In this document: positions 7,013-46,157 of the stretch, one piece after another
Layout: each line of letters opens with the position of its first letter
Position numbering within the stretch: position 1 is the first letter of the stretch
Source of the DNA: a virus
Direction: 5' to 3' (one strand)
Length of the DNA stretch: 64,000 nucleotides
Virus record (IMG/VR): IMGVR_UViG_3300050343_000177
Location: 16,432 to 80,431 of that record
The notes under the pieces: generated by a model
Seen by the model: the letters and a program-made list of their open reading frames with translations, nothing else
Told to the model about the DNA's origin: nothing
The model's database searches: none
Position numbers and translations under genes: made by a program

Positions 7013-7133
7013 TTCTGGGATAACTCCTAAACTAAAAGGTTTATAAGTGACTTCGACGTGTCACATAATACGATATTAATAGTTATATTAAAGAAGTAGT
7101 TGATGTATACCGAAGCCTCGGTGTAAAGAGAGT

Positions 7134-23657: not shown

Positions 23658-25196
23658 TTATTTCTTTTTAGTGTACTGATCTAAAATTCCACCTGGACGA
23701 AAATAGTCTTCTTCAGCACCTGGTTTACTGAAATCGTAGTTTTCAATAACATTGGCAGGCACAACCGGACCGACACCAGTCTGAGGCGCACCTTGATTAT
23801 TATTCAGTGCAAAATCAGTCTTTGCTCCTGCAGCAAATGCAGATTTCACAGCAGACCCTGCAGCAGATAAAGGATTCTGTGCGGATGCAGGAGTATCTTT
23901 GCTTACATCTTTATTTTTATCGATATGTGCGGCTAATAGTGACTGAGCACTGGATTTACCGCTGGATATATCGCGAGCATCGGCCCGATCAATCTTAAAT
24001 TTGTCTCCGAGCTTCCCATCTTCGGTCAATGCGCCACGACCATAGTGCTGACCGCCCGCATATACGACGTTATTTACCGCATCACGCGCTTTTAGTCCTG
24101 ACATACTGTCGTCACCGCTCATAAATGCAGCACGTGCCATCAATTGACGGCGTTCTGGCGTCATTTCCCTGTTTGCTTCCTGCGTTTTTACCCCTTCAAG
24201 CGCATCTGACAGTCTTCCGCTAGAAATTCCTGTGGATTGTTGGGCGATTCGCTCCGATCCGCCTTCAATTAGTGGAGCACCGGGGTTAAATGGCGCTTGA
24301 TCCTGCAGATTTGTAGAACGAATTGCAGATACTCCACCTTCTGCGTCGAAATTTACAGCAGCTCTACCACCGAAGTCGCCTTGACTTGTATCAAAGCCGG
24401 GTGTCTGTGCACCTGTTTGTGCATATGGGTTTGACATTGTGGATGCCAACTGGTTAGAGCTAAACGGCTGTACACCTAAGCCTTTGAGTAGGTCATCAAA
24501 CGTCCTATTCATATTGATTGGCGTACCGCCACCGCCGAGATTTTTACCCGTTTGTGTACCTCCGCCAGGAATTTCACGAGTTTCCTCTGCAGGAAGAATA
24601 GTTCTTTCAGATACTTGTCCTGTGTAGCCACCTGATGAATGATCATAATTACCTTTGGTCTGCTTAAGAGCTGCTGCTGTCTCCGCTTGCTGCTTTTTTA
24701 TCCTTGCGTCTATATCAGCAGTGTTGTTAAAAGTACTGCTTGAAGTATCCGAGCCGATAGGTCTCTCTTTATTAGCATTCTGACTAACTGCCTTTTGATA
24801 AGCCTCTGGACTTGAGTATCCAAGACGACTCCACTTTCTACTTGAGTCCTCACTCCCACCAAGGATTAGTGGTGCTGTTACTGCACCAGTTGTGGTCATA
24901 CTTCCTAGACCCAACAAGCTTCCAGCATTTTTTTGAGTTAGCTGTCCCGTAGGTTTAGCAGCATAAGGATTTGGTTTAGCAGGTTGAGAGCCTGGCATTG
25001 CCTTTATCTTGTCTTTGATAGTATCAAACACATTCCTTGATTGTCCTGAAAAATTACCCTTATTAGGTTTAGCGGAGTAAGGGTTTGGCTTACTGGAAGG
25101 CTTTTTTGGTTTTGAAATCACGTCATCATAATCAGCACCAAAAAGTACTTCGCCAACTTTTCCAATCGCGTTATCTAAAAACTGCTGTGCTGACAT
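23658..25196 (-). CDS. Large low-complexity late protein
   Basis: 512 aa ORF; KPNPYxAKP repeated. Confidence 0.6.
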   Translation of the reverse strand: MSAQQFLDNAIGKVGEVLFGADYDDVISKPKKPSSKPNPYSAKPNKGNFSGQSRNVFDTIKDKIKAMPGSQPAKPNPYAAKPTGQLTQKNAGSLLGLGSMTTTGAVTAPLILGGSEDSSRKWSRLGYSSPEAYQKAVSQNANKERPIGSDTSSSTFNNTADIDARIKKQQAETAAALKQTKGNYDHSSGGYTGQVSERTILPAEETREIPGGGTQTGKNLGGGGTPINMNRTFDDLLKGLGVQPFSSNQLASTMSNPYAQTGAQTPGFDTSQGDFGGRAAVNFDAEGGVSAIRSTNLQDQAPFNPGAPLIEGGSERIAQQSTGISSGRLSDALEGVKTQEANREMTPERRQLMARAAFMSGDDSMSGLKARDAVNNVVYAGGQHYGRGALTEDGKLGDKFKIDRADARDISSGKSSAQSLLAAHIDKNKDVSKDTPASAQNPLSAAGSAVKSAFAAGAKTDFALNNNQGAPQTGVGPVVPANVIENYDFSKPGAEEDYFRPGGILDQYTKKK

Positions 25197-25227
25197 CTTA
25201 CTTGTTCAATATATTCTCTTATTCTAC

Positions 25228-25346
25228 AAACTACAAAACTACGCTAGCTACGCTCCTATCTAACCCTTTCTAAAAAAATGATAGTAGGGGGAGATGACCG
25301 TGCATTAATAAACAGGTATATAGAAAACTACCGTAGTTACCGTAGC
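25228..25346. repeat. CTAC/GTAG iteron-like element, copy 1
   Basis: AAACTACAAAACTACGCTAGCTACGCT (25228-25254) is identical to 38679-38705; followed by CTAACCCTTTCT and inverted CGTAG units. Confidence 0.8.
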
Positions 25347-25541
25347 AAAAGCGTTTGACTCTAAACCTCAGTCAATAAGCAGGCTAGACCTTCCCCAATT
25401 TATAAAGTAACACAGCCTCCAAAGCTAGTGATTATTAAGACAATCTGCACACTACATTATTATGTATGCACATTAATTTCAAGCAACCACATATTTGTTT
25501 TTTAAGTTCGCTAATATTAAAGTGTTGAAGGCATAATTGAT

Positions 25542-26168
25542 ATGAACTATGAAAACTTAAAATACACGGAATTAGCTACAGAGTTCAAAAAGATTCACAG
25601 AAAGAAGATATCACCTGAAGCATTGATGTATCGCGTCAAGACGAAAGGATTATCAAAGACTGAAGCTGTTAATCTTCCTTTAGACACACGTGGGAAATCA
25701 AGCAAGACTAAGCAGCTTCGGGTCGGTCGTCGTCCTCGTAAAGAACGCTGTTCTGGTCTGACTTATTGCTATCTACATATTGATGTTGCGGGTACGGGTG
25801 CTCCTCCTGTTGTCCGCTATGTAGGCAGAGGTGAAGGGGGACGATGTTTGCATTTTAAGGATCGTGAAAAGCTGCATGCTGACTGGATTCATTCATGGTT
25901 TACTGATATTGATTACGGTGCGATTGAGATGGGTGTAGCGCCATCAAAACTTAGAGATCTTAGTTGGATTGATTGTTCAGTTCGTCAAAAGCTTATTGTG
26001 ACTTCAAGTCCTTTTGAAAATGCTAAACGTGAGGAGCCGAGGCTTATTAATCGCTATAATACCAAGGATCATGATCTATTTAATCTAATTCTTCATGCAA
26101 CTGATAGACGTAGTATTAGTAAAGAGTTTCAGCCACGACCATTACGTAAAAAGCAGATCGCCGCATAG
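25542..26168 (+). CDS. GIY-YIG-type endonuclease with N-terminal HTH-like segment
   Basis: YCYLH...RYVGRGEGGR...EEPRLINRY...LFN. Confidence 0.6.
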   Translation: MNYENLKYTELATEFKKIHRKKISPEALMYRVKTKGLSKTEAVNLPLDTRGKSSKTKQLRVGRRPRKERCSGLTYCYLHIDVAGTGAPPVVRYVGRGEGGRCLHFKDREKLHADWIHSWFTDIDYGAIEMGVAPSKLRDLSWIDCSVRQKLIVTSSPFENAKREEPRLINRYNTKDHDLFNLILHATDRRSISKEFQPRPLRKKQIAA

Positions 26169-26339
26169 AGTGCTAAAAAGTTGAAATAAAAAATTATGCT
26201 ATATAACGGACCCCCCTGCTTGTTGACTTTTGCTGTGACAAAAACGCCCTATAGGAGGTCAAAAATGCTAAATTTTTCGTTTTTGGTTTAATACCCTCTG
26301 TACCTCGATTGGCGGTCAAACAAAAAAAATAAGTAGTAG

Positions 26340-26710
26340 TTAACAGTTGCTTACACATAAGTAAGTAACACGAGTTAACAATTACATTTACATTTGTTTG
26401 TCCTTTGTCATCGAGCTGAAGTGTATTTAACAATCGTTGTTCGTTCGTTACACGAACTCACGTTTGTTCTTCTGTTCACACGAGTTTACGTCAGTTACAT
26501 TATCACTTATGTTATTCGATACGAATCCTTATCGTGTGTAACTTCCGTTCGTAACTCGTATTCACTTCTGTTGACACAAGTTACCTCCCTTATCTATCTA
26601 CCGTTCAAGACACATGTCGTGACGGTTGTGATACATATATTGCACCGTGACTCACCTCGGAGTTTTCCACAGTTATGCTTAAGTTTTCCACAAGCTTGTG
26701 GAGAACTCCT
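26340..26710. promoter_or_regulatory. Non-coding strand-switch region with ACACGAGTT-like repeats and three DnaA-box-like 9-mers
   Basis: ACACGA-core units at 26368, 26450, 26478, 26532 (inverted), 26574 (variant); TTTTCCACA at 26663 and 26684, inverted TGTGGAGAA at 26697. Confidence 0.55.
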
Positions 26711-27331
26711 TGGTTCGTAGTCACTTTACTTGTGTCATTACAGAGGTATTTACCCTAGTTCCTTTTACACGTTCCACTAATGTTCGCCACTTCGTGGCTC
26801 ACGGCTGCGCGGTGTTGATTGTTATGCAGCAGTGAGTATCTCTTGATTCTCTCTGGTGTTATCTCTGCCTACCCAGTGGCCTCCCAACAGCCAGCAGCCT
26901 TGGGGCTCAGCCGCCCCTTTATTCGAGAGTGTTCTTTATTTGAATTAATGAGATGTTTACTTTAGTAGATCTTTCTACAATGACTGAATTTGAAACCTTT
27001 CCATCATATTACTTAGCTAATCGCAAGTTAACTATGTTAGTAAGAAAACACAGTTTCTAGAAGTCGTTACCTCATATGGCATGAGTGACAATTATTCCCC
27101 CTCACGGGGGTTTATTTCTCTGTGCTCTATACATTAATTCTTATGTTATTCGGTGCTGTACTTTTCTCCTTGAGTTATCTCACAGGTCGCTCTCTCGCTG
27201 AGCGTAAGTATATCCGTACTCTTACACAGAAGGGAAGTTACCAAACACCTGGTGCTTTCCTTTCGTTACTTAAGTAACATCTATGGCCCCTAACGGGGCC
27301 TGTATTTCATTGTGTTCTTTATATCTGTTCT

Positions 27332-27481
27332 GTGTTTCGTTGTCGTTCTGTCTTTGCTGAATCCCCTTTGGGTTCTCCTGGCGTTTGTGCTTCCCGCGTT
27401 GCTATGCCTTTGCTGCCTGTGGTCTTTGCCTTCTGGTGGCTTCGGCTTGCTCCGCGTGGTTGCGCTGTCTTTGTTGTCTGA
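27332..27481 (+). CDS. 49-aa adenine-poor cassette ORF
   Basis: GTG..TGA ORF exactly filling the space between two repeat copies. Confidence 0.4.
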   Translation: MFRCRSVFAESPLGSPGVCASRVAMPLLPVVFAFWWLRLAPRGCAVFVV

Positions 27482-27539
27482 TCCCTCTCCCCCGCAAAGC
27501 GGGGGTTTATTTCATTGTGTTCTTTATCTGATTTCTCAG

Positions 27540-27951
27540 ATGGGTATTGACTTCCGCGCTTGTCTCTATGTTGCGAATCCTTCTCAGGACGAGCCAACCG
27601 TTATCCCACTTGCCTATCTAGGCAACGGCGATATCAAGCGTGCCATGTACGACCTGCTCACCAAAGATGAGGACGGTTTCCCCCACTCCCGGTGGATCTA
27701 TTCCAATCGATGAGGGCACTCCTGCATTCGAAGCACTCGATAGTCTACTTTTCGATGTAGACGTTGATCTTGAAATCCTTAAGAATCGGCTTGAGGATGC
27801 TGAAAGTGACCGTGATGATGATAAGTGGCACCGAATCTACCAAGATTTTAGGGGCACCAAAGATCATTACGACGTGTTGAACGACACTGTCAATGCCATC
27901 AAAGCTTCTTCCGGTAATCCTTCCATTACCTGTGAAATTGGTTGGTGGTAA
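27540..27951 (+). CDS. Early cassette protein (frameshifted)
   Basis: MGIDFRACLY... joins ...IPIDEGTPAFEALD...EIGWW*. Confidence 0.6.
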
Positions 27952-28007
27952 CACTTATGGCCCCTAACGGGGCCTTTATTTCATTGTGATCTTTATTTAT
28001 TAATCAA

Positions 28008-28157
28008 ATGGCTTATTTCTGGTATGCAATCATTGATACTGACATCACTGAGTATTCCCATGTTTTAGCTGGACCGATGCCTGCCCTTTATTGGGCTGTG
28101 ACTCGTGGTCCTGCTGCAATGCCCTATATTTCCTTTGATGATGATGATGATGAGTAA
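28008..28157 (+). CDS. 49-aa early cassette protein with acidic tail
   Basis: MAYFWYAIIDTD...ISFDDDDDE* between repeat copies. Confidence 0.6.
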   Translation: MAYFWYAIIDTDITEYSHVLAGPMPALYWAVTRGPAAMPYISFDDDDDE

Positions 28158-28213
28158 CAACTATGGCCCCTAACGGGGCCTTTATTTCATTGTGTTCTTT
28201 ACTTCAATTACAC

Positions 28214-28360
28214 ATGAAGTCACGTACTAATTCTGACCTCAAAGTTATTACACTTCGTCAGACGATCAAGGCTTCCCTCAAGAATGCAGCTTCAGTTGCT
28301 TTCTTTGACCCAGCTGCAGATCCTCGTCACGTAGCAGCCCTGCTTGCTAACGCTAGTTAA
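28214..28360 (+). CDS. 48-aa early cassette protein
   Basis: MKSRTNSDLK... between repeat copies. Confidence 0.6.
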   Translation: MKSRTNSDLKVITLRQTIKASLKNAASVAFFDPAADPRHVAALLANAS

Positions 28361-28417
28361 TAACTATTCCCCCCCTCCGGGGGGTTTATTTCACTGTGAT
28401 CTATATCTATCAAGCAG

Positions 28418-28645
28418 ATGATTAAGCCCTTTAGTGCTATCTTCTTTGGTGCTACTCTCGGTTTCATGTCACTTATTCCTTTACAAGCTCTGACTAACAG
28501 TCACGCTAAGGCTAAGTGTTCCGATAACGCTGATACTCACACTCTTGTATCTGTACGCGCCTTCGCAGGCGATGCAGATTACTGTGTGGCTAACAAGTAT
28601 CTCACTCCTGATCGTATTGCTACTCACTACGGTCCTGGTTACTAA
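28418..28645 (+). CDS. Early cassette protein with N-terminal hydrophobic/signal segment
   Basis: 75 aa between repeat copies. Confidence 0.65.
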   Translation: MIKPFSAIFFGATLGFMSLIPLQALTNSHAKAKCSDNADTHTLVSVRAFAGDADYCVANKYLTPDRIATHYGPGY

Positions 28646-28700
28646 CATCTATTCCCTCCTCACGAGGGTTTTTTCCTTTGTGTTCTTTACTTCATCAACG

Positions 28701-28926
28701 ATGCAAGTACAACACAACTCTCACGAAGAAGTGCCGCTTCGGTATCTCTGAGTGGACATTCGGTCAATTATCTTCTGGTTGGCTAGCTGCAATTGGTCCT
28801 CGTGGTAAGAAGATCTTCTTCGCCAACCTTGAGCAGATGGATGCTTGTACATCTAAGTTCATCAATGACTATCACTATAAGAAGCAATCAACTGAACTGG
28901 TTCAACAGTTAAGTCTTGCTATCTAA
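28701..28926 (+). CDS. Early cassette protein (frameshift near start)
   Basis: ATG at 28701 then KYNTTLTKKCRFG... frame. Confidence 0.55.
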
Positions 28927-28983
28927 CAGCCCTATGGCCCCTAACGGGCCTTTATTTCATTGTGTTCTTTATCTGTTCATCAG

Positions 28984-29154
28984 ATGACACTTCAACAATC
29001 TATCCTCACTGGTGCATGTGTTGGAGCTATTGCTTCCATCCTTCTGTTTTTTACAGTTGATGCCTATCACACATTCATCATGTGGCAATTTACTCACCTC
29101 TGGTATCTGCTCCCATGTGCATTCATTGGTGCTCGCAGTTGCTTATGTAACTGA
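28984..29154 (+). CDS. Small membrane early cassette protein
   Basis: Two hydrophobic segments. Confidence 0.55.
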   Translation: MTLQQSILTGACVGAIASILLFFTVDAYHTFIMWQFTHLWYLLPCAFIGARSCLCN

Positions 29155-29231
29155 CTAACAGACTATGCCCCCTACCGGGGGCTTTAGGTCGGTGTGCCCT
29201 ATTCAGGGTTGTTCATTTACTTGTGTATTTC

Positions 29232-29504
29232 ATGCGTTTCAAAATCCCTGGTCAAGACGTCTCTGTCCGTCTATTCGAGCGTGTATCAACTACTGACTCT
29301 CAGTACGACATCTTTGATGTTGGTCTTGAGCAAGCTGACGGTTCTATCGACTCTATGGTCGTTGGTGGTTCTTTCTCTTACGCTAAGTCTCTTGTCAAAG
29401 CTATGGACAAGAAGGCTGAAGAGAAGAAGACTCCTGTCCCTGTCACTGTCCTCAATACTGATACATCTCCTGAACCTGTATCAGCTGAACCTGCAGCTGC
29501 CTAA
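29232..29504 (+). CDS. Early cassette protein
   Basis: MRFKIPGQDV... between repeat copies. Confidence 0.65.
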   Translation: MRFKIPGQDVSVRLFERVSTTDSQYDIFDVGLEQADGSIDSMVVGGSFSYAKSLVKAMDKKAEEKKTPVPVTVLNTDTSPEPVSAEPAAA

Positions 29505-29534
29505 TACTCTCTCCCCCCTCACGGGGGGGGTTTT

Positions 29535-29895
29535 TTACTGTGGATTATTGCCCATGACTGGTGTTTGTGATGCCAAATCGTACAAAGCACCAATACCGGA
29601 ACTCACTCCTATTAAACCTGCGGCTGGTACGCCGTACCTGACTCCAGCATTAACTGCTGGTACTCCATAATCCCATTAAGGCTCGGAGTATGTCATTCTC
29701 CTCCTCTACCGCAAACTTCCGTGTTGCTGGTGCCCCAGCTACTAAGCCTGCTGCTGCTTGGACACCTTGTCCCATGCTTGCTTGCTTTGGCTTAAACCCA
29801 CTGATGTATTCAGCTAATTTACTAGCGTATGCATCATCGAAGTTTCTTACCTTCTGTCCTGCCATTCGCAGGCTATCCATAATTTGCTTACGCAT
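29535..29895 (-). CDS. Late-type Gly/Ala-rich protein, antisense within the early array (frameshifted)
   Basis: MRKQIMDSLRMAGQ... continues YGVPAVNAGVRYGVPAAG...GNNPQ*; TACAATA upstream. Confidence 0.6.
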
Positions 29896-29990
29896 TACTT
29901 ACATAACTAGTAGTATATTTATTGTACTAAGAATAACAATTCCCCTCTATCGAGGGGTTTGAATCATTGTGTTCATCATTTATATCTTCA

Positions 29991-30362
29991 ATGACTACAT
30001 CAACTCCTGAAACCACCTCTACTGAAACTCTTGAGTACCTGGCTAAGGTTCAACAAGTGAAGGACCTCCAGACTGCTCGCTGTCGTGGATGGGCTTACTT
30101 CCTTGGTGCTTACTTCACTGGTCCTATTTGGCCTGGTGTAGTTGCTAACCGTACTGGCGAATGGACACCCTTCTGGGTTGGACTTGGCCTCGGTGTTGTC
30201 TCCTTACCTTTCGCATTCCTTGACTTAGGTATCATTAGTTCTTTACCAGCCGCTGGCGTTGGTACAGCAATGATGGCTTCCAAGTCTAAGGATAAGCGTC
30301 GGTTACTCAACATCGTTAGTCCTGAACAGGCTGACGTAAAGCTCTTCAGTTCCGGTTTCTGA
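29991..30362 (+). CDS. Membrane early cassette protein
   Basis: Hydrophobic helices, between repeat copies. Confidence 0.65.
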   Translation: MTTSTPETTSTETLEYLAKVQQVKDLQTARCRGWAYFLGAYFTGPIWPGVVANRTGEWTPFWVGLGLGVVSLPFAFLDLGIISSLPAAGVGTAMMASKSKDKRRLLNIVSPEQADVKLFSSGF

Positions 30363-30897
30363 TCCCTCTATTCCCCCCTTATCAGGGGGTATTTCCCTTT
30401 GTGCCTTTCTTAAGTGCACAATGCCTTACTACTCCACTCGTAATATCGCCATTGTTGATCATGAGATCAATGTGGATGATATGACTCCCATGCACTATGA
30501 GTACGAATCCTATGAGGCTCGTGATCGTGGTGACTTCGATGAACTCTTAGAGCTTCTTGGCTTCTAAGTACCCTCCCCTGTCCTACCGGATGGGGGTTAT
30601 TCGTCGTGCGATTCGCGTAGGTCTTAAAAGGCCGCCCGCAAAAATCGCGTAAATAGTTAATATCTAAATAAGGGCCTATATATAAAGAAGCCGTGCATAC
30701 TTTATCCCTAAACATACTAATAGCTCTGTCTATCGTCTTACCTCTACCTACACAAGCTACTCCTCGTTATGACGAGCTGATGTGTGAAGAGGTAGCTGAA
30801 GCTGTTAATGAGAGTGTTCTCTGGGGCACTCTTACACAAGCAGAAGCTGACGATATATCAGATCAGCTGCTATGAACTCTATCACCTAATTACATCC

Positions 30898-31420
30898 ATG
30901 AAACTATTCCGCAATCTATGGCTGCTGCCGCTAGTGGCCGCTGTTTCTATGTCCACTCCCTGCACTCGCTAAAGTCGATGCTGGTACTGTCAATCTTCTA
31001 GAAACTCTAGATGATTACGGTATAACTGTTGAATACAATCTGCTCACTGGTTCTAGCGACGGTTATGCAAGGTAGGTATACCACTAAGACAAGTTGATGT
31101 CTATCTGTTATAAAGGTCAACCTGATGCATTCGAAACGCATGACACTGTTCGCCATGAAACGATGCATGTGCTTACAACATTGTGCAGCTCTACGTCGTG
31201 GTGATCCACGTGGTATCGTTCCACTAGCTATCAATCCTACTGAACGTCAATCAGTGGGTATCACAAGTTCTTGCGATCTGGTCATATTAATCGAGATCAA
31301 AGAGTAACTTTATCCTGCTCGAAAGCTCATCAGATTGAACTAGAAGCATTTGCAGGCGCAGCTCACTATTCAGCTGATGAATTAGCTAGCTTAGTCAAAT
31401 CTTGGTGTACCAAAGTAATA
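30898..31420 (+). CDS. Putative secreted HExxH zinc metallopeptidase (multiply frameshifted)
   Basis: Signal-like N-terminus; DTVRHETMH at 31142-31168; downstream IELEAF. Confidence 0.5.
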
Positions 31421-32579
31421 CATTAATAAGACCCCTACATAAAGAAGCAGTCCTACTATTCTCCTCTAACAAATTATGAAAATCTCTACTCTCGGCGCTC
31501 GTTCTCTCTGCCGCCTCTGTTTTACCTGTCTCTGCAGGCATTCATGACTTCAATCCTACTAACGCTGCTCCTGTTCCTACAAGAACTAAAGCACAAGTAG
31601 GTCAAGGTCAATGTGTCAGCTACTCGTGACGGCAGCAAGCTTTGCTATCATCAAAACTGCTGCCTCTAGTAATTCTCTATCTGCGATCCTCGATGTTGAT
31701 TATCCTAATGCTACCTCAAGTTGCTCACATTGACTGCAGTACAGGACGCTGGGGTGCCTTCGGTGACCTCCCTAAGGCAACACTCTCGAACTGGTATTTA
31801 GGTCAATTCTGTCCTCACTTATGGTTGATACATTAATGCCCCCTATCGGGGCTTTTGTCAATTCGTGTTCATTCATATATCTAACTATGAACTTTACCTC
31901 TGGATCCCGATCAGAAGCTGTTGGTACACCCGAATACGAAGAGATCTTCCAAGAACAACTATGACAGGCGACGTATGTTGCTTGACATGATCGAAGAAGA
32001 TCGTATGTATTCACAGCTTCAGTACCCCTACCGTGCATTCTCAAACTAAGTATGACTGTACTTATGACTCAGCAAACACTATCCTGTCCTTGCAGTGATC
32101 GGTTCGCTAGGTATCCTCTCAACCGGTGTCATCCTTACGTACTCCTTCGCTCGTAAGGAATCGTATGGTAACCGTAGATACCAATAATAGAACCTCTTGC
32201 CCCCTATCGGGGGCTTTTTTCAATTGTGTCCTTTAGATATTTCTAATGACTACATAGCTTCTTCTTCTAATAAAGAAGCACTTGCTTTCCCTCCAGCTCA
32301 AGTCATTCCTGACAGGTATTATGTTTGTCAAGACTCCATTGACTGGAAACTGCAACTTGAACGCGCACGTGACGGCTGGAATTACATAACGTCGGTCTCG
32401 TTATTGCTCTTATAGGTGAAAAGTTACACGATGCTGGCCGTTGGTTAGCAGAAGTTTGATCAATGATCTACTTCCTTTGTGTAACGATCTTCATCTATGG
32501 CTGATGTTTGATCTCAACTAACAACACTTGCCCCCGATTGGGGGCTTTTTTTCGATCTGTGTTCTTTAGTCTATATCAC

Positions 32580-32980
32580 ATGACTCAATCGTGTATCCCT
32601 GATTCAATCTCTATGTCTGACCTTGAGTCATTCGCTAAGAAGGCTGTAACTCCAGTTGAAGAAGCCTCTTTACGATGGTCTCACTGCAACTGAAGTTCAA
32701 GAGCTTGCTATGGAAACTCTCCGTGGCATGACTCGTAAGTGCAAAGACCCTATGGTCGAAAAATGCATGATGCTTGCTATGGCAATGTCATGGGTTAAAT
32801 GGCACACAGATCTCGCTCAAGAGATTATGCCTGCTACTGCTGACTCTGACACAAGATGAAGCAGCTACTGAGTTTGCTACCTGTCTCCTACGTGATGCTG
32901 GTAAAGCTCAAGCTATCTATACCCTTGTTCATGACATCAGCATGGACAATGACTTCATCTTAGGTCTGATCAGACTCTGA
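32580..32980 (+). CDS. Early cassette protein (frameshifted)
   Basis: Three overlapping fragments between repeat copies. Confidence 0.45.
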
Positions 32981-34416
32981 GTAACAACATTACCCCCTAT
33001 CGGGGGTTTTGTTTCTCTTGTGTTCTTTAGTGCACATTCTTGTGCACCCAACACTCTGTCAAGCGGATCTTCAAGAGTATAAACGCCGAGCTCGCGTGTG
33101 ACACCGCACCGCACGTAAACCTGTCAAACACTGCAAAGTTATCTACAGACTTTCATGCCGAGTAACATGGCAATCTGTGTAGCGACTTACATTCCATATT
33201 AACCTTTGCTTGAATCACTTTCATGGCTAACACTGTTTCTTTTGGGGTTATCGGTTCTACCGGTACTCAGTCCAGGCCAGCAACTAAGTGCTCCCAATCC
33301 CACAATTGTTCATTCAACTGTGGTTGGTAGGAGATCTTTTGGTCAACTTAAGTCACACAAGCCTAATCCGCTGAGGTATTTCACCTCGTGACTCGTCGCA
33401 GGTCTTCTGCTGCATAACATCTAATTCCTCACCTAACGGTGGGATTTTTTTGGTTGCACTTTGCATCTTTTGCATGGCCTCCTACGGCTCTCTATCTTCG
33501 CAAACAAACGCAACGCAATCTTTTCAAAGCGCTGAGTTTGACACTAGACACAGAATTATTACAGCGGGTTCTACTCGTAAAGAAATCAAAGAGCAGTTTG
33601 AACATGCTCTAAAAACGTACACGTTCTTCTGCAAACTCGTCTAACAATATAGATGAGTTCTACGCAATTAATTTTCACGATGGATGTAGTTACTTAAAAC
33701 CAGGGTATTCTAATGATGTATTTGAACGAGTCTCTACATTGATTTCTCGACATGATAATTACAAACTCATCAAAGAAGTCACTGTTTTGCAAATGACTTC
33801 GTTAAATATGGATGCTAAGAGTCTTGAAAAAGTATCTAAGCAAATTCTTCGTCCATTGCTAGCCAATGACTATGGCTATCGTGACGCTTTTAACGACGAC
33901 CACCTCGTTACTATGCCAATAACTGAATTTTACTTTGGAAATTCAGATGTTTTATTTGATAACAGAATCTTTCATGATTTAATTGTTAAAACATACATCT
34001 GGACCAAAAGTATTAGTTTTTAATCAATAACATCCATTGCCCCCTAACGGGGGCTTTCTTTCAGTGTGTTCATCATCAATCGATGGACGTATGTTGTATA
34101 TATACAAAAACATGAACGCTGCAAATATCCTTGACCGTTCCAGAAAAGATTTTACTGACGCTTTACCCGTACACGCTCTAACTTCTCCTCTCACGAAACT
34201 CAAATGGCTTATCAATCAATGCTTCCTATTGCCAAGCAACTCAAGGAAGAATCAGGTACTCGGTTCTCCGTTAAGTATCTGATCAAGGTTTATCAAACAC
34301 CTCAAGCCCTTCAGCACAAGCTGACCTGGGTTCGTGGTTGTAAAGCCTCTGTTGGATGACATCAATTGCCCCCTATATGGGGGCTTTTTTCATCTGTGTC
34401 CATTATTAATAATTAA

Positions 34417-34701
34417 ATGTCTAACACGAACTTCAACGCTGTTCTCTTCAACGGCAACAACAGTAATCCTAGAGCTCCTCAGCTTTCTGGATTTGTATCA
34501 ATCCCTGTATCACAAGTTGATCAAGTGATTGCACTATTGCAAGCACAGCGTCGTTTTTCTGACAACGGTGTTGAAACTGTGCGTCTTCCTCTGTCCTTCT
34601 GGCAAGCACAAGGAAAGGCACCGCTTGCTTATAAGGGCCAAAGTTCATTCTGGACTGGCACTTCCGTTCCTGCAGTAGACCCAACTCCAGCTGTCGCTTG
34701 A
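34417..34701 (+). CDS. DUF736-like small OB-fold / ssDNA-binding-like protein
   Basis: LF...NPRAPQLSG...LSFW pattern. Confidence 0.45.
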   Translation: MSNTNFNAVLFNGNNSNPRAPQLSGFVSIPVSQVDQVIALLQAQRRFSDNGVETVRLPLSFWQAQGKAPLAYKGQSSFWTGTSVPAVDPTPAVA

Positions 34702-34765
34702 GTCTTTTCCCTCCTAACGGAGGGATTTTTTCTTATCCTTAAGTAAACAACAGCCGTATCAGACA

Positions 34766-35041
34766 ATGCCTACTACAGCTCCAACTAAAACTAAAACTAT
34801 CCCTACTGTCACACCTGATTCATATGAGTGGCACACCTGTGCTGACGGCCAGTATCGCGTAGTTCAAACTCGATTTGGTCTATACAAAAGTGTTGACAAG
34901 CTAAATAATGATCTCATTACTGGATTAACTGAAGAAGCAATTCACAATTGCACTCCTCTGCATTTACTGGCACAGCAGCCTGACTATGACAAACGTTACG
35001 ATACCGTTATAGGTAAAGCTACTGTGACACCTGACTTATGA
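34766..35041 (+). CDS. Hypothetical protein, paralog of 35434..35709
   Basis: Shared YRVVxTRFGLYKSxDK..NDLITGLTE..IH.CTPLHLLAQQPDYD. Confidence 0.75.
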   Translation: MPTTAPTKTKTIPTVTPDSYEWHTCADGQYRVVQTRFGLYKSVDKLNNDLITGLTEEAIHNCTPLHLLAQQPDYDKRYDTVIGKATVTPDL

Positions 35042-35433
35042 ATCCAGAAAAACAATTAAAGAAACTAGCGAAAACTTACAAGGTATCGATGCAGTTCACT
35101 TGAGAACTAACGATGCCTACTGGAATCAGCACCCTGAAAAAGTATATAAAGTCCAGCGTTAACTAATATTAACATTGTAAAACTTCGAACTTGGAAATGA
35201 CTCAATCAACTACTTGGGAACAGTTTATCTACGGGATTGTTAACTTTGGAGACTGTTGGTACGCTCGTTTTGATACGGAAAACTGTTGTCGTGAAGATTT
35301 CTGGGAATGGTTATCAACAGGATATTATAGCATGTATGTCTATCCTTATCCAGATAACGATCCTTGGAATTTAGCCGGTCGCGATCCTATGGAATCTGTA
35401 TACAAAAAATGAATTAACACAGGAGAACAACTC

Positions 35434-35709
35434 ATGACAACTGCTACAAAGACTAAAAAGAAAGATATTCTCACTGTTTCTACTGATAACTATGCCTGGT
35501 TCACTTGTGAACACGGCTCCTACCGTGTCGTCGAGACACGCTTTGGCTTATACAAAAGTATTGATAAGCAAGGCAACGACCTTATCACTGGCTTAACTGA
35601 GCAAGCAATTCACGACTGTACTCCCTTACATTTATTGGCACAGCAGCCTGATTACGATGGAAAATATGACACCGTTATCGGTTCTGCATCCGTAACTCCT
35701 GACCTATGA
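35434..35709 (+). CDS. Hypothetical protein, paralog of 34766..35041
   Basis: Shares the same motifs as 34766..35041. Confidence 0.75.
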   Translation: MTTATKTKKKDILTVSTDNYAWFTCEHGSYRVVETRFGLYKSIDKQGNDLITGLTEQAIHDCTPLHLLAQQPDYDGKYDTVIGSASVTPDL

Positions 35710-36154
35710 ATGAACATAAACAATTGAAAAAGCTTGCGAAAACTTACGCTAAAGCTGACTCCTGTGTTGATAGAGACACCGCTCAGAAGCTTATTAAAAA
35801 AGCTACAAAAATCAGAGCTAAATTAGAAAAGTAATTGATATATTAACAGTGCATACCACAACAATTCTTTCCCTTTTCTCTGGCTTTTGTGTCGGCTCTA
35901 TAGCCGCTGCTCTAATCCTTCATTGATACTGTATGAACATAAATATTTCTCTATCTATAGAAGACTACACGATTCTCATTAATGCTCTTCACTACTACAA
36001 GAAAGCAGAGAAGCGCGGCAACTTTCAACAATATGACACTGACCGTATCAATCAACTAAGAGACCATATGGCCTCACAGTTTATGAGTGGCTTCAGTTAA
36101 ACAGCCCTTCCGCCCTATCGGGCGGTTTAGTCGCTTGTGTTCTCTATATTTCCT

Positions 36155-36394
36155 ATGGAACAATCTTATTGCCTCATCTCATCGTTCAACCTCGAACGTA
36201 TTGATGAAATGCTCGTTCGTGCTATCAACATCTGTGGTAGCCCTCGTCCATTCTCTGAAACTACTGAAGAGGATGACTGCACTGCCTCATATGCAGGAGC
36301 TTATGGTTACTCCTATCAGACACTGAAAAGTATCAAAGAGTATATCGATACGGCTCGACCTTATGACCCTTCTATCACTGGCGTTCCGTTCTGA
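36155..36394 (+). CDS. Early cassette protein
   Basis: MEQSYCLISS... after the repeat copy at 36110. Confidence 0.6.
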   Translation: MEQSYCLISSFNLERIDEMLVRAINICGSPRPFSETTEEDDCTASYAGAYGYSYQTLKSIKEYIDTARPYDPSITGVPF

Positions 36395-36450
36395 CTTAAA
36401 TACACAAGCAGGTCACTACTTATTATTTAAGTAGCTAGACTTGCTTTATT

Positions 36451-36522
36451 GGGGCATTAGTGAAACGGTTATCACAATAGATTGTCTATCTATTATTAGC
36501 AGTTCGAATCTGCTATGCCTCG
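36451..36522 (+). tRNA. tRNA-Asp (GTC), CCA not encoded
   Basis: Acceptor GGGGCAT/ATGCCTC, D stem GTGA/TCAC, anticodon stem ATAGA/TCTAT with loop TT-GTC-TA, T arm AGCAG-TTCGAAT-CTGCT, discriminator G. Confidence 0.88.
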
Positions 36523-36540
36523 TTATAAGTACTACTGAAT

Positions 36541-37020
36541 ATGACTAATAAACATAACTGGACTGAATTATTCGAAAGCTTGCCTGACGAAGAGCTAGAT
36601 AAACTAGCCATCCTTCGAATTATTGAAACTTCGAATGGAATTATACAATTCGCCTTCCGCGACAAAACACCTGACGCTCTGTCTGTTGAAGACACCCGCA
36701 AAGCTATGGGATTTAGTATGTCTTCTATCAAACGAATGCAGATTGTTCTCGAAAACGAAACGATTGACTTTGCTGAACCTACCAAAGACATTATGGCATT
36801 GGTTCGCAAATATTATGTAAGCGGTATGAAGCAGGGCTCTGACGAAGATTATGAAGAGTTTCTCCGTTCTTCTCTTGCCTGCTTACAAGCCGTAGGTATA
36901 GAACGTTTGGAACGTGCAAAAGATAAACTCTTTGCGTTTAGCTATGCTATGCCTCCCTATGCATGGGAGTATGGAATGTCTTACTGCCGTAACTTCTTAA
37001 AAGAAGGTTTGCCTACTTAA
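36541..37020 (+). CDS. Hypothetical protein
   Basis: 159 aa ORF. Confidence 0.65.
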   Translation: MTNKHNWTELFESLPDEELDKLAILRIIETSNGIIQFAFRDKTPDALSVEDTRKAMGFSMSSIKRMQIVLENETIDFAEPTKDIMALVRKYYVSGMKQGSDEDYEEFLRSSLACLQAVGIERLERAKDKLFAFSYAMPPYAWEYGMSYCRNFLKEGLPT

Positions 37021-37075
37021 CTGTCATTTAATACTAGATATAATGTCTGTATTAAACATGTAACTTGTTAATATC

Positions 37076-37687
37076 ATGGGAAGGCGTACTGCACATACTG
37101 GACTTAATCGTAATAACGATTTCTACAATAAGTACGGTCAACTTAAGGAGGGCTACAGCTTTACAGGTGGCAATAATATGGTCGCACGTGGCACTGGTGA
37201 CGTTAGTGTTCGCTATGGTGCCGGTAAAGATGGTACAAATTATAAAATAGAGCAACGCACTATTTACGGTAAAGAATCTCAACCTAAAGCTGCTCCTCAA
37301 AAAGCACCGGCTCCTGCCCCTAAATCTAAGCCTAAGCCTAAGCCTAAGCCTGAACCTGAACCTATCAAACACTCACCTGAGATTCAACAAGCTAAAGCAA
37401 GTGTGGCTAAATACAAAAGTGAAATACTTAATGATCAAACATCTAAATCAATGTACGGCAATGATCAAGATTTACTAAGTGCTTACACCCAAGACTTTGA
37501 CGCTCGTAATAGTACTGAAGGAGAGAAGTCTACTCCTAACCTAAACTTAGATTTACCTAATAACGTAGACACTACAGATAACAATTACTTCGCTAATGGC
37601 ACGTTTGACCCTGTCAATAAATCTGACGAAGCAGCACAGAACTTCTTTTCTAACAAAAAGAACCTTGTCCTAAACAACTTCAGATAA
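37076..37687 (+). CDS. Hypothetical protein with HSPEIQQAKA motif
   Basis: PK-rich linker; motif shared with the next gene. Confidence 0.65.
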   Translation: MGRRTAHTGLNRNNDFYNKYGQLKEGYSFTGGNNMVARGTGDVSVRYGAGKDGTNYKIEQRTIYGKESQPKAAPQKAPAPAPKSKPKPKPKPEPEPIKHSPEIQQAKASVAKYKSEILNDQTSKSMYGNDQDLLSAYTQDFDARNSTEGEKSTPNLNLDLPNNVDTTDNNYFANGTFDPVNKSDEAAQNFFSNKKNLVLNNFR

Positions 37688-37718
37688 TTTAGAATAGATA
37701 TATTCTTGTTATTATCCA

Positions 37719-38678
37719 ATGTCTGTATATAAAGGTGAAACTTCCTACAGTGCTAATAAAGATGCAGCACAAGCATTCCTTGACGACAAACTTTCTAAGA
37801 ACAAATACAACTCTTCTAATGACTATTCAACAGAAGGGTTTGACCCCTCTAGCTATACATCCGAGCAACTGAGCTCACTCAATGCCTCTGGTGGTCCAAC
37901 TAAGTTTGGTAAGAAAACGTATAATGTTGTCTCTAATCAAGATGAGATTGATAACTTTAATAATGCACCTAGTACTGCAACAAGTACTTGGGATGGTAAA
38001 AACTATACTCGAAACTCAATGAACTCTGATGATTTGAAAAATCATTTTGGTCTTGCAGACGGTAGTGATGTTGGATCTGGTTTTAATAAATCCACAGGTG
38101 CAACAGATGATAATCAAACCAAAGGAAATGCTTTACTTGGTGAAGGTTATTTGACAGACGATAACTACGAAAAACTTCGCAATTCTGATAAGGTTTGGGA
38201 TGCTTATGCTGCTATGGAAGGGCAAGAAGCTGCTGATGAAAAACGTGAAGGAAATCCTGACGGTCTCTCTATTAATGCACTTGATGGCTTATTTGATAAC
38301 CTGACAGCTAATGCAGACCCTAAAAAAGCTCCTGAACCTATAACTGAAAAAGAAGAAGTCGTTCACTCACCTGAAATCCAACAGGCTAAAGCACGTGTTG
38401 GTAAGTATGAGAACGACATTCTCTCTGGTAAGACTTCACAAGATATCTACGGTGGCGCTGATGATTTTTATACAGACTATCAACTGAAGCTTCAAGGCAC
38501 GCCTAATCCAATAGGTAACAACAGTAACTATCGGTTTGACGATGGCGCACTGAACTTCAACGGCTCTGATATCTCTGCTGATGAAAAACCACCTGCCCCT
38601 GTACAAGCAGCTTCTTCGTTCCTTGCTAATCAAAAGAAAAAAGCTATCAAAGACTTTAACATTAAACCTACGAACTAA
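37719..38678 (+). CDS. Hypothetical protein with HSPEIQQAKA motif
   Basis: 319 aa; TAGAATAG upstream. Confidence 0.65.
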   Translation: MSVYKGETSYSANKDAAQAFLDDKLSKNKYNSSNDYSTEGFDPSSYTSEQLSSLNASGGPTKFGKKTYNVVSNQDEIDNFNNAPSTATSTWDGKNYTRNSMNSDDLKNHFGLADGSDVGSGFNKSTGATDDNQTKGNALLGEGYLTDDNYEKLRNSDKVWDAYAAMEGQEAADEKREGNPDGLSINALDGLFDNLTANADPKKAPEPITEKEEVVHSPEIQQAKARVGKYENDILSGKTSQDIYGGADDFYTDYQLKLQGTPNPIGNNSNYRFDDGALNFNGSDISADEKPPAPVQAASSFLANQKKKAIKDFNIKPTN

Positions 38679-38808
38679 AAACTACAAAACTACGCTAGCT
38701 ACGCTACTTCCTAACCCTTTCTGAAAAAATACATCTATAGAGGGAAGGCCACTGCCTATTAAAAAAGGACTTTATTAGAATCGAGCGTAGTTTGTGTAGC
38801 AGCGTAGT
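38679..38808. repeat. CTAC/GTAG iteron-like element, copy 2
   Basis: 27-bp identity with 25228-25254; inverted GCGTAG/TGTAG units at 38785-38808. Confidence 0.8.
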
Positions 38809-38871
38809 AATTAACTCTATTTCACAATTATACAAATGCTTGTTAGACTAGTCATATCAAGCGATTATAAG

Positions 38872-39269
38872 ATGAAAAAGAAACACAAAAAACTACCTCC
38901 TTTAGAACATTTACTCTCTCTTTATGATTATGACCCCAATACTGGTGGACTATTAAGAAAGGAGCAGAACCCAGTGAGCTCAATGCTATTGGCGCAGTTG
39001 GACTTCTGGAAGAGGATACAAATTACGTGTATGTCAAAAGGATACATTTCCTATTACATCGCATCGTTTACTTTATGTTTCACCGTAAGGACCCTGGTCA
39101 ATATGTGATTGATCACATCAACGGTGACCCTGCAGATAACCGCATTAAGAACTTACGCCGTTGTCGTCAGACAACTAACGCTAAGAACCTACGCAAGAAG
39201 GGTAAGTACGTCGTCGATGACGAAGGCGTTGGTCGCTGGGTCTCTGATGTTGTCAAAGCTGCTGTATAA
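38872..39269 (+). CDS. HNH homing endonuclease (frameshifted)
   Basis: LYDYDPNTG...LHRIVY...IDHINGDPADNRIKNLR. Confidence 0.8.
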
Positions 39270-39364
39270 CTGTAAAACTGTAAAACTGCAGTGCTGTTAA
39301 TGCTTTCCTGATAAATTTCGCACTTTCGGGCTCATTATCCTCATAGAGCTGTAACATATCCTTA

Positions 39365-39559
39365 TTGCTTCTTCGAGGGCTTATCAAACGTATAACTGTG
39401 ATGGTTCCACCGGACATACATAGAGAGCTCAAGCTTCATGCTGTAGCGAACGATACAACTCTCCAAGATTGCATAATGCAAGCCATAAAAGATCATTTAC
39501 AGCACAAATGTAGAACTGTAAATGTGGATTCAAAATGTGCAGAGTCGAACACTAAATAG
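39365..39559 (+). CDS. Ribbon-helix-helix DNA-binding protein
   Basis: KRITVMVPPDIHRELKLHAVANDTTLQDCIMQAI. Confidence 0.65.
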   Translation: MLLRGLIKRITVMVPPDIHRELKLHAVANDTTLQDCIMQAIKDHLQHKCRTVNVDSKCAESNTK

Positions 39560-39593
39560 AGACATTCGACTGTCGCATGTATACCTTCAGATT

Positions 39594-39630
39594 GCCCCCT
39601 ATCGGGGGCTTTATTCGTTTGTGCCCCATT
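39594..39630 (+). repeat. Hairpin + TGTG repeat, outlying copy
   Basis: GCCCCC-TATC-GGGGGC-TTTATTCGTTTGTG upstream of the DUF932 gene. Confidence 0.85.
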
Positions 39631-39657
39631 TGGGGTTTGTCCTATATATGTCAATCA

Positions 39658-40653
39658 ATGTCCCCTGCTAATTTCACATCCGGCTGGCTCGGCAACGGAG
39701 AGCGTGCGTGGCACGGCCAAGGTGTCGTCACCGAAGGCACACTCCCAGCGCGAGAAGCGTTTGAAACAGCGAACGCACTCTTCACTGTCGAGAAACGAGA
39801 GCTTACTTATCCAAAAGAAGTCATCGGACATCCGCTCTCTGACTCAGAAGCTATCCGCTTCACAAGTGAGCCATCAGGTGCCTACGGTCTCGTCCGCACT
39901 GACACCCAAGACTTGCTTGGCATCGTCAGTAAGCAGTACGAAATCGTACAGAACGAAAGTCTCCTACGCATGGCGGAGTTCATCCGCGAAGAGGTTGACA
40001 TGGACACCGTCGTCGTTCTATCAGATGGTGGCAAAGTCTGCTTTACCGCCACACTCCGTGGTGCGACGCAGGACATCGTCCGTGGTGACACAGTCAAACG
40101 CCGCATCGTTGGCTTCCTAGGCCATGACGGTAAGACTGGCTGTGGTGCAATGTTCACCAACATCCGTGTTGTGTGCACTAACACCCTTGCTGCAGCTATG
40201 TCTGCTGCTACTGCAAAAGTGAGCATCCGTCACAAGACTGGTGCTAATGACAACTTCGATCAACTGATTCAGTCAATCGATACTGCACGTGAGACATTCA
40301 ATAATGAAGTCGAACTATTCCGTCAGTTTGCCGAGACACCTATTGAGCAAGCTGACTTCCGTGAACTCTTAGAGCGTGTCTACGCCAGTGAGATTCCTGA
40401 AGATAAGCAGATCGATGACTTACGTAAGTATCCCAAGCTCCGTCGTGCCTATACCGGTGGCTTAGGTCAGCGTGAGTTTGCTCCCTACACCATGTGGAGC
40501 GCAGTCAACAGTATCACTGAAGTAGAAACAAGCACGCAGATTGGAACACGCTCTCAGCAACGTCGTCAATTTGCTAGGGCTAACTTTGGTGGTGGTCTGT
40601 CTATAAGCAGACGTGCTATTCAAGAAGCTGAGGCAATGCTTTCGCTTGTCTAA
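39658..40653 (+). CDS. DUF932 family phage/plasmid protein
   Basis: AWHGQG, VRTDT..LLGIVSKQYEIVQN, HDG, TNIRVVCTNTL, IRH motifs. Confidence 0.85.
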   Translation: MSPANFTSGWLGNGERAWHGQGVVTEGTLPAREAFETANALFTVEKRELTYPKEVIGHPLSDSEAIRFTSEPSGAYGLVRTDTQDLLGIVSKQYEIVQNESLLRMAEFIREEVDMDTVVVLSDGGKVCFTATLRGATQDIVRGDTVKRRIVGFLGHDGKTGCGAMFTNIRVVCTNTLAAAMSAATAKVSIRHKTGANDNFDQLIQSIDTARETFNNEVELFRQFAETPIEQADFRELLERVYASEIPEDKQIDDLRKYPKLRRAYTGGLGQREFAPYTMWSAVNSITEVETSTQIGTRSQQRRQFARANFGGGLSISRRAIQEAEAMLSLV

Positions 40654-43443: not shown

Positions 43444-44532
43444 ATGTCTTCAACTATTCTCACGCCCAGGTCTAATCCCCTTAAGGATACCTGGGATTCT
43501 TATCTCAACTGGGTCACAAGCACTAACAATCGTCTTTATGTCGGACTCTTCGGCACATTGATGATCCCTTGCTTGCTTGCGGCCACTACTTGCTTCATCA
43601 TTGCTTTCATCGCTGCTCCACCTGTGGACATCGATGGTATTCGCGAAGGTGTCTCTGGCTCTCTTCTGTGGGGTAACAACATCATCTCTGGTGCTGTTGT
43701 CCCTAGCAGCAATGCAATCGGTCTTCATATGTATCCGATTTGGGAGGCAGCATCTCTCGATGAATGGCTCTACAACGGTGGTTGCTATCAGCTAATTATT
43801 TTCCACTTCCTTATTGGAGTCTGGTGTTACGCCGGACGTGAGTGGGAACTTTCCTATCGCTTAGGTATGCGTCCTTGGATCTTTGTAGCTTTTACTGCAC
43901 CTTGTGCCGCTGCTACTGCTGTATTCCTTATCTATCCTATCGGTCAAGGTTCATTCTCCGATGGCATGCCTCTTGGTATCTCCGGCACTTTTAACTATAT
44001 GTTGGTTTTCCAAGCAGAGCACAACATCTTGATGAACCCTCTACATATGCTCGGCGTAGCTGGAGTATTTGGAGGCGCACTGTTCTCTGCAATGCATGGA
44101 TCACTTGTTACCTCTTCACTTGTTCGTGAAACGACTGAATTCGAATCACAAAACAATGGCTACAAGTTCGGTCAAGAACAAGAGTCGTATAATATCGTTG
44201 CAGCGCATGGTTACTTCGGTCGCCTAATCTTCCAATACGCAAGCTTCAATAACTCTCGTTCACTTCACTTCTTCTTGGCAGCATTCCCTGTTGTTGGTAT
44301 CTGGTGTGCAGCACTGGGCGTTAGCACAATGGCGGCAAACTTGAATGGACTGAACTTCAATCAGTCAATTCTTGACACTCAAGATCATGTTATCCCTACT
44401 TGGGCTGACATTCTGAATCGTGCCAATCTTGGCTTTGAAGTGATCCATGAAAGGAACGCCCACAACTTCCCGCTCGATCTTGCGTCAACTAGCGCCACAC
44501 CTGTGGCCTTGATTGCACCATCTATTGGTTAA
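43444..44532 (+). CDS. psbA: Photosystem II D1 protein
   Basis: Full-length D1: [38 protein letters not shown]. Confidence 0.99.
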
Positions 44533-46087: not shown

Positions 46088-46103
46088 GCCCCCTACCGGG
46101 GGC
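46088..46103 (+). repeat. Hairpin repeat, outlying copy lacking the TGTG tail
   Basis: GCCCCC-TACC-GGGGGC; a similar GCCCCC-GACT-GGGGGC lies at 45679-45694. Confidence 0.65.
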
Positions 46104-46157
46104 TGTAGTTCGTAATGCCCATTCGTGGGTATCTGTTCCTTTATATTTTTTCTACAG

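Follow-up and report, generated by a model that had tools for sequence, protein, structure and literature searches.

A stretch of viral DNA of 64,000 nucleotides, referred to here as the window (bases 16432-80431 of the 80,431-bp IMG/VR record IMGVR_UViG_3300050343_000177, rated complete by CheckV), contains about 25 tiny early genes that are separated by one fixed-format signal, a GC hairpin followed at a constant distance by the motif TGTG-YYC-TTT-A. A hairpin scan of the whole genome and tabulation of the matches located 20 such hairpin-motif units on the + strand between 26902 and 36146. This confirmed a repeated array of hairpins with YGTG elements that had been described earlier from the sequence of the window alone (the original prediction). 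Besides the full units the array includes two degenerate copies (30575 and 33428) and one motif-less hairpin (34708), and three further units are present outside it, at 39594, 45679 and 46088. The element is real, strongly non-random, clade-wide and tied to the turnover of gene cassettes. The explanation that we favour, tentatively, is that it is a composite junction which punctuates expression by terminating and restarting transcription, and which is also a recombination point between fast-turning-over early cassettes.

The virus is an S-EIV1-like marine cyanophage with a psbA gene at 43444-44532. Megablast and tblastn comparison with isolate phages revealed a single related isolate, the Arctic freshwater cyanophage S-EIV1, with a terminase 59% identical to that of the phage described here.

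Each unit begins 5-9 nt after a stop codon and consists of the GC hairpin, a T-rich tract, the motif and about 12 G-poor nucleotides that lead to the ATG. The stems are 5-7 bp long and nearly pure G-C, and the loop is mostly of 4 nt. Only 33-37 nt separate the stem from the ATG; the Shine-Dalgarno (SD) sequence is absent and the TG of the motif lies approximately 20 nt before the start codon. According to the original prediction, YGTG begins in most copies 20 nt after the first base of the loop. This ruler was misplaced: what stays constant is the length of the tract, 10 nt from the last base of the stem to YGTG and 12 nt to the invariant TG, which was found in 18 of the 22 window copies and is kept despite stems of 5 or 7 bp or loops of 3 or 5 nt, so that the distance from loop to YGTG varies from 19 to 21 nt. 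Four or five of the window junctions are near-identical across about 41 nt.

The units have the anatomy of an intrinsic terminator, a GC-rich stem-loop directly followed by a U-rich tract on the transcript strand. T occupies the first three positions of the tract in 90%, 62% and 78% of copies. Terminator-like sites in the 25000-40000 region number 48, against 9.9 ± 3.3 in shuffled sequences, an approximately fivefold excess. No such hairpins were found on the minus strand of the phage, and the likely host genome has six such terminators in 400 kb, too small a number for their loops to be compared with those of the units. No Rfam family matched the units.

Four units, those at 29167, 39594, 45679 and 46088, form a separate class together with those of the matching genes in relatives. 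The three outlying positions listed in the original prediction thus proved real, each of them having, as at 29167, an additional small hairpin inserted between T tract and motif. In this class TG occupies positions 13-14 after the stem and the second hairpin follows immediately; it is typically CCC...GGG, in some cases with the RNA-type loops UUCG or GAAA, and another TGTYC motif is often found 21-24 nt before the ATG. In several of these units the TGCCC core is itself base-paired. A hairpin in this position would look like the stabilising hairpin at an mRNA 5′ end. Two-hairpin units head clade-conserved genes, while simple units head cassettes, most of which have no homologue in relatives although their junctions do. 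Comparison of the two classes therefore defines the part that never varies as the hairpin, the 12 nt and TG-YYC.

Conservation of the junctions and turnover of cassettes

An exact search with the tract plus motif identified a second phage contig with the same architecture and other stems. Using the DUF932 protein as bait, we then collected 23 loci of related uncultured phages, and arrays were present in all of them. Each genome prefers its own stem (GCCGGC, GGACCC, GCCCCC with a TCC loop, or GCCGCT). Across the loci the motif that follows is uniform: the weight matrix built from 134 copies has T 98%, G 98%, T 86%, Y, C 98%, T 81%, T 77% and T 82%. The offset from stem to motif is exact in 102 of the 134 copies (about 76%) and one nucleotide shorter in another 22.

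Covariation of the stems, claimed earlier for the window, was borne out across the relatives by double (compensatory) changes at all six stem pairs, in 101 cells in total. The percentage of paired stem positions carries no weight here because the rows had been pre-selected for perfect stems. As the stems are almost always perfect, the choice between G-T and A-C mismatches cannot tell which strand folds. The loop is conserved as well. TATC, TAAC or TAAT make up 56 of 71 four-base loops, the overall pattern is TAWY, and the initial TA is conserved to at least 90% in 54 copies aligned without gaps.

The association of the two parts was also examined starting from the motif. A GC hairpin ends 8-13 nt upstream of 49 out of 63 (78%) strong + strand matches, compared with none of seven minus-strand matches and 1.2% of random positions. 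The few matches without a hairpin are two-hairpin units or conserved coding sequence within a 226-aa gene; the strong match inside that gene, AGTGTTCTTTC at 46280 (+), is conserved as coding sequence and not as a junction. In S-EIV1 the hairpins, the motif and any other intergenic repeat are all absent, which indicates that hairpin and motif are present together or absent together. A scan of viral contigs with a degenerate pattern gave, among the matches listed, only single chance ones. The element offers a precise marker by which the early, rapidly evolving cassette region of S-EIV1-like phages can be searched for. This lineage is widespread and mostly uncultured, S-EIV1-like phages having contributed about 3% of the cyanophage reads of one ocean survey (PMC5332604), and the junctions make the punctuation and timing of cyanophage early transcription directly testable.

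The original prediction had suggested looking among related phages for gain and loss of genes at the repeat boundaries, and this is what the alignments revealed. Two relatives, L027 and L032, are 97-99% identical, and their arrays differ by one cassette replacement, two insertions and one deletion. Each of the four starts or ends in a junction. On the left, three boundaries immediately follow GTTCTT(T); on the right, one coincides with the stop codon that precedes the next hairpin; and one crossover falls within a hairpin. A perfect 50-nt duplication of the junction flanks one of the insertions. In 12 pairs of relatives, 23 of 107 alignment breakpoints fell within junction windows that make up 4.9% of the sequence (binomial p ~2e-9, a value which is only indicative because the pairs share ancestry and are not independent). 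These alignments show that the conserved junction, of approximately 45-50 bp, is the stretch of homology at which insertion, deletion and replacement of cassettes take place. Low-depth metagenome contigs join 28926 to 34036, 34359 to 34038 and 45665 to 32194, every joint being just before a hairpin; we regard this as a hint only.

Similar behaviour has been described for the promoter-early stem-loop (PeSL) cassettes of T4-like phages (Arbiol et al. 2010, PMC2839356; Comeau et al. 2014, PMC4122927). In both cases small variable early open reading frames (ORFs) have a stem-loop immediately ahead of their expression signal and start codon, the element is repeated through plastic regions, and insertions, deletions and replacements between close relatives are located at the elements (PMC4122927). 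PeSL elements contain a recognisable sigma-70 promoter (-35, N17, -10) and an SD sequence, whereas the units described here lack both and have instead an exactly spaced TGTYCTTTA after the stem and a loop of conserved sequence; the S-EIV1-like lineage is, moreover, unrelated to the T4-like carriers of PeSL. Because the cassette insertions, deletions and replacements start and end in junctions, the units behave like PeSL cassettes without the sigma-70 promoter. On these comparisons, the units are best described as a putative functional counterpart of PeSL in an unrelated cyanophage lineage with a different start signal. They would provide a clear case, beyond the T4-like phages, of regulatory junctions that double as gene-shuffling joints.

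Possible functions of the junction in expression

If the junction terminates and restarts transcription, the GC hairpin and U tract would, judging by their anatomy, end or attenuate the transcript of the upstream cassette, and the invariant TG with YYC-TTT-A, 12 nt past the stem, would begin the expression signal of the next one. The TG dinucleotide is a pyrimidine-purine start site. Its position, some 20 nt ahead of an ATG that has no SD sequence, suggests that it is most likely the 5′ end of the next mRNA. Initiation would proceed by a non-sigma-70 restart of the host RNA polymerase that needs an additional factor, and the 45-50-bp junction would at the same time offer homology for cassette exchange. 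Each cassette would then be a transcription unit of its own, as would suit a shuffling region. Such a non-sigma-70 start signal would operate in hosts which lack Rho and seldom use hairpin terminators.

No ordinary promoter was detected. Sigma-70-like sites in the array number 21 against 31 ± 4.9 expected, so that they are not enriched and if anything depleted, and none of them lies in a junction. Only 6 of 78 units have a TAnnnT 5-9 nt upstream of the ATG, this sequence is absent from the tract and the motif, and the junctions contain no -10 or -35 sequence. These counts rule out both a sigma-70 promoter within the junction and leaderless transcripts whose -10 box would precede the ATG, so that a start signal inside the array, if there is one, must be non-canonical. 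The original prediction had offered terminator-promoter units acting as recombination joints as one of its alternatives; the recombination part is upheld by the near-identical relatives and the terminator part stands at the level of anatomy only, while no promoter of the sigma-70 type fits.

Several observations weigh against a restart. No factor that reads TGYYCTTT as a promoter was identified, too many clade-conserved proteins being absent from S-EIV1 for any one of them to stand out. The phage does encode a sigma-70-family protein (approximately 9020-9960, minus strand, within the structural module), which retains regions 1.2, 2, 3 and 4 (Pfam Sigma70_r2, 1e-23; Sigma70_r3, 4e-16), departs from the primary-sigma pattern in region 4.2, and is split over three frames, probably by assembly indels. 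It is an unlikely reader of the motif: its -10-reading residues, inspected by eye, are canonical and it should therefore need TAnnnT. The conserved TAWY loop is superfluous for a plain terminator and is left unexplained by a restart. A second hairpin can separate tract and motif without loss of the unit, which a signal read in RNA would accommodate more readily than a double-stranded promoter. In addition, the first unit has a hairpin though no coding sequence precedes it, both here and in the relative G003. Together with motif copies in the leader described below, this hairpin fits antitermination and processing slightly better than restart.

We also considered that the hairpin and TGYYC constitute one bipartite signal read at a fixed phase by some factor, either as a hairpin-phased start or as a repeated nut-like site. 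This appears possible, on balance doubtful. A hairpin-phased start or a nut-like site for every gene would, if true, represent a form of early gene control for which no phage precedent has been described.

The nut-like variant can be stated more precisely. The array would be one long operon transcribed from a promoter near 26.2 kb, with a boxA-like motif and a boxB-like UAWY loop at each junction; the motif would be bound by NusB/S10 or a phage analogue and the loop by a small phage protein, and each junction would re-arm RNA polymerase to pass the next terminator, or would regulate translation as the boxA of suhB does. The sequence GTYCTTTA agrees with the gamma-proteobacterial boxA consensus GYTCTTTAANA at all of its first eight positions, among them the critical C4 and T6 (PMC5725501). 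As in the nut sites of lambdoid phages and rrn operons, a hairpin and a pyrimidine-rich 8-9-mer are held at a fixed distance with terminators downstream; in rrn leaders, too, the hairpin comes before boxA, and fixed spacing with a conserved loop is typical of bipartite RNA-protein sites. No internal promoters were found in the array, a hairpin inserted between tract and motif would be neutral for an RNA signal, and two motif-like copies precede the first terminator in the leader, where about 0.13 would be expected. However, the rrn boxA of four Synechococcus/Cyanobium genomes is GAACCTTGA(C/A)AA in the spacer and GAACCCTT in the leader and matches the phage motif at only four of eight positions, a comparison made with likely hosts. 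The phage motif does not conserve the AANA tail of boxA, no NusB of the phage was detected, and base-pairing of the TGCCC core in several two-hairpin units would block a protein that binds single-stranded RNA. Moreover, the hairpin of the phage units is itself terminator-like, and no known system has a nut site before every gene. We consider antitermination of this kind rather unlikely.

Less probable still is RNA processing, in which a polycistronic early transcript would be cut at or next to TG to give monocistronic mRNAs with hairpin-protected 3′ ends. Processing would account for the constant spacing between hairpin and motif, for the position of the second hairpins immediately behind TG and, again, for the lack of internal promoters, and RNase E is central to cyanobacterial RNA metabolism (PMC8682795). 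Around TG, however, the signature of cyanobacterial RNase E (A at -3, U at +2, cleavage after a purine; PMC8682795) is not clearly present: A is present at -3 in only 20-27% of copies, and U at +2 is possible in two registers. A hairpin signal between early genes and mRNAs ending in a hairpin recall the early RNase III sites of T7. Those sites are long irregular hairpins without U tracts, whereas the phage units have 6-bp stems, far too short for RNase III, and the strict U tract directly after the stem marks a terminator rather than a mere 3′ stabiliser.

It is also conceivable that the units are plain terminators with a functionless motif, the constancy of which would result from copy-and-paste spread and gene conversion of one junction module. 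The near-identity of some window junctions and the homogenisation of stems within each genome are consistent with this. Yet diverged genomes keep the tract length though its sequence drifts, and they keep TG and C at 98% while the stems are replaced, which argues for selection rather than recent copying. The lack of such terminators on the phage minus strand and their scarcity in the likely host point the same way, and we regard this explanation as very unlikely.

The original prediction had put forward structure-dependent promoters of the type used by the virion RNA polymerase (RNAP) of phage N4: a hairpin would extrude from the template strand and a phage polymerase would start at a fixed distance. 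The short GC stem and the 3-4-nt loop stable on the template strand are shared with N4 promoters; in most copies the template-strand loop is GATA, GTTA, GTGA, GGTA or GGA with a closing C-G pair, TG at its constant spacing would make a good pyrimidine-purine start, and hairpin and motif are coupled. No polymerase candidate was found, and an N4-type promoter is unlikely for this reason. Neither a single-subunit nor a virion RNAP was found. The largest ORF has 744 aa, the only DFDGD motif is in the primase, and the large unknown proteins have no PHROG, Pfam or NCBIfam match pointing to a polymerase; the search with PF00940 gave no match, but neither did its controls. The loop rule held in part: 49 of 71 four-base loops fit GNA/GNNA, but the pattern TAWY is more specific, and 12 of 71 (TAAT, TATT) break the GNNA rule on the template strand. 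A distance of 12-13 nt from stem to start is longer than in N4, the U tract is unnecessary for and foreign to N4 promoters, and N4 has three copies against about 25 here. We attach very little probability to this mechanism.

The least credible alternative is that of integron-like cassettes moved on folded hairpin sites by a phage tyrosine recombinase. The cassettes are small, co-oriented and promoterless and each ends in a hairpin, and a tyrosine recombinase is indeed encoded outside the window (G000:C1:5169-5987, minus strand; PHROG integrase, 6.6e-21; L034); but it is present in only three of five complete array-bearing relatives, and its absence from the other two makes such a system unlikely. 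It is, besides, only faintly Xer-like and matches no integron-integrase model; the hairpins are of 16 nt, compared with at least 57 nt for the folded R/L-box site of attC, no covariation supports an outer R-box-like helix, and the 50 nt of perfect homology flanking one insertion are enough for ordinary homologous recombination. The search for a polymerase or a recombinase elsewhere in the genome, suggested with the original prediction, was thus negative for the former and positive for the latter. Presence of the recombinase in three of the five relatives hints that some members of the clade may be temperate.

Further candidates were rejected. An outer helix between the T[AG]AACAC context and the GTGTTC motif was considered because complementary runs are enriched, but GAACAC/GTGTTC does not covary (Fisher p = 1). 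Pairing of the motif with host 16S rRNA would use one complement of 8-9 nt (GAAGAACAC, at about position 652), which is within chance and misfits the TGTCC variants. LexA and CRP sites, a MotA box, a T4 late promoter, an ECF antisense promoter and a primase site, all judged by eye, fail on spacing or for want of a half-site.

Oriented repeated intergenic motifs before start codons, some of them after an inverted repeat, are also found in mycobacteriophages, as SAS/ESAS in cluster K and as stoperators in cluster A. SAS contains an SD-like core and stoperators are hairpin-less repressor sites, and both differ from the phage units in sequence and host.

Individual units and neighbouring features

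The array is preceded by a non-coding leader (26170-26901, +) of about 600-730 nt, which contains no convincing ORF and itself follows a GIY-YIG-like gene (25542-26168). The two hairpin-less motif-like copies lie in it, at 26397 and 26463. The leader is rich in GTTAC/ACGAG words and small palindromes, and one block of it, around AAAAACGCCCTATAGG...AAAAATGCTA, has been conserved in G003, a relative (L143:2640-2760). The stretch may represent an origin, a non-coding RNA or an early promoter and its leader.

All units lie on the + strand. The first (26902-26940) has a hairpin at 26902-26917 with 5 bp and a 6-nt loop, a 12-nt tract and TGTTCTTTA from 26930. In the second (27097-27131) the hairpin at 27097-27110 is followed by a 10-nt tract and TGTGCTCTATA at 27121. 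The third (27285-27321), GGCCCC-TAAC-GGGGCC with TGTGTTCTTTA at 27311, precedes an ORF that starts with GTG at 27332. The next unit (27489-27526) combines a 7-bp stem and a 3-nt loop with a 10-nt tract and the motif at 27516. Two units follow at 27959-27995, with motif TGTGATCTTTA at 27985, and at 28165-28201, with the motif at 28191. The stems of the next two are CCCCCC-TCC-GGGGGG (28370-28405, motif at 28395) and CCCTC-CTCAC-GAGGG (28654-28689, motif at 28679). In the unit at 28936-28971 (motif at 28961) the stem is short of one G in the window assembly; other contigs insert a G after 28945.

The two-hairpin unit of the array (29167-29234) has its first hairpin at 29167-29182, TGTG at 29193, the second hairpin at 29196-29209, TGTTCATTTA at 29210 and the ATG at 29232; the gene that follows is conserved in 10 relatives. 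A unit with a weak motif, TGTGGATTATT at 29539, is found at 29513-29549. It is followed by CCCCTC-TATC-GAGGGG (29942-29978, motif at 29968), by a unit at 30374-30410 with TGTGCCTTTCT at 30400, and by the first degenerate copy (30575-30620), an imperfect 9-pair hairpin with G-T pairs and then CGTG.

After this copy the stretch 30600-31840 (+) is hypervariable, free of units and has broken frames. Two similar sequences TA(Y)ATAAAGAAGC occur in it at about 30682 and 31437. Other public contigs differ from the window here at dozens of positions, and 71 nt at 31620-31692 are replaced.

Units resume at 31838-31874 (CGTGTTCATTC at 31864) and 32199-32235 (TGTGTCCTTTA at 32225). The tract is of 12 nt in the unit at 32530-32568 (motif at 32558) and of 11 nt in that at 32992-33029 (motif at 33019). 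The second degenerate copy (33428-33470) consists of a hairpin with one T-G pair and a T tract, its motif not being clear. Further units are located at 34039-34075 (TGTGTTCATCA at 34065) and at 34368-34405, where the loop is of 5 nt and TGTGTCCATTA is at 34395. The motif-less hairpin with its T tract (34708-34735) comes next and is followed by an A-rich island (34766-36100, +). This island contains no units; its small genes have GGAG SD sites and include two paralogous 91-aa genes (34766-35041 and 35434-35709). It resembles a module of separate origin. The array ends with CCGCCC-TATC-GGGCGG at 36110-36146 (motif at 36136), and a tRNA-Asp (GTC) follows directly at 36450-36523 (+).

Outside the array, the two-hairpin unit before the DUF932 gene (39594-39660) has hairpins at 39594-39609 and 39624-39635, TGTG at 39620, TTTGTCCTATA at 39636 and the true ATG at 39658. 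The unit at 45679-45748 comprises hairpins at 45679-45694 and 45710-45722, TG at 45708, TGTCGTTTA at 45724 and the ATG at 45746. In the last one (46088-46160) the hairpins are at 46088-46103 and 46118-46129, the second with a UUCG loop, TG is at 46116, TGTTCCTTTA at 46134 and the ATG at 46158. The genes following the units at 45679 and 46088 are each conserved in 20 loci.

Structural genes occupy the minus strand up to 25196; from 25.5 kb everything is on the plus strand, the small-gene array first. The genes found include those for terminase, major head protein and virion proteins, and a ribonucleotide reductase (RNR) is encoded as well as the DUF932 protein. The psbA product is 78-85% identical to its Synechococcus/Cyanobium homologues, and the public runs with matching sequence are seawater and viral metagenomes.

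Comparison with contigs of four other public runs revealed 1-nt indels in the window assembly at 27045, 27680 and 28945 and in many places in 28946-38767, because of which some of the mini-ORFs are artificially broken or shortened. Several small ORFs, terminase, the sigma factor and RNR appear fragmented in the assembly. An alternative genetic code was rejected as the cause, since no stop-codon reassignment repairs the frames.

In the region of the major capsid gene, a match to a group I intron (Rfam, 80.9 bits, 6802-7039, minus strand) adjoins a NUMOD4-HNH endonuclease gene (7134-7649, +). Finally, an element of about 125 bp with CTACGC repeats is present at 25210-25345 and at 38679-38808, and it is found at the same module boundary in relative G003 (L143:2370-2500).

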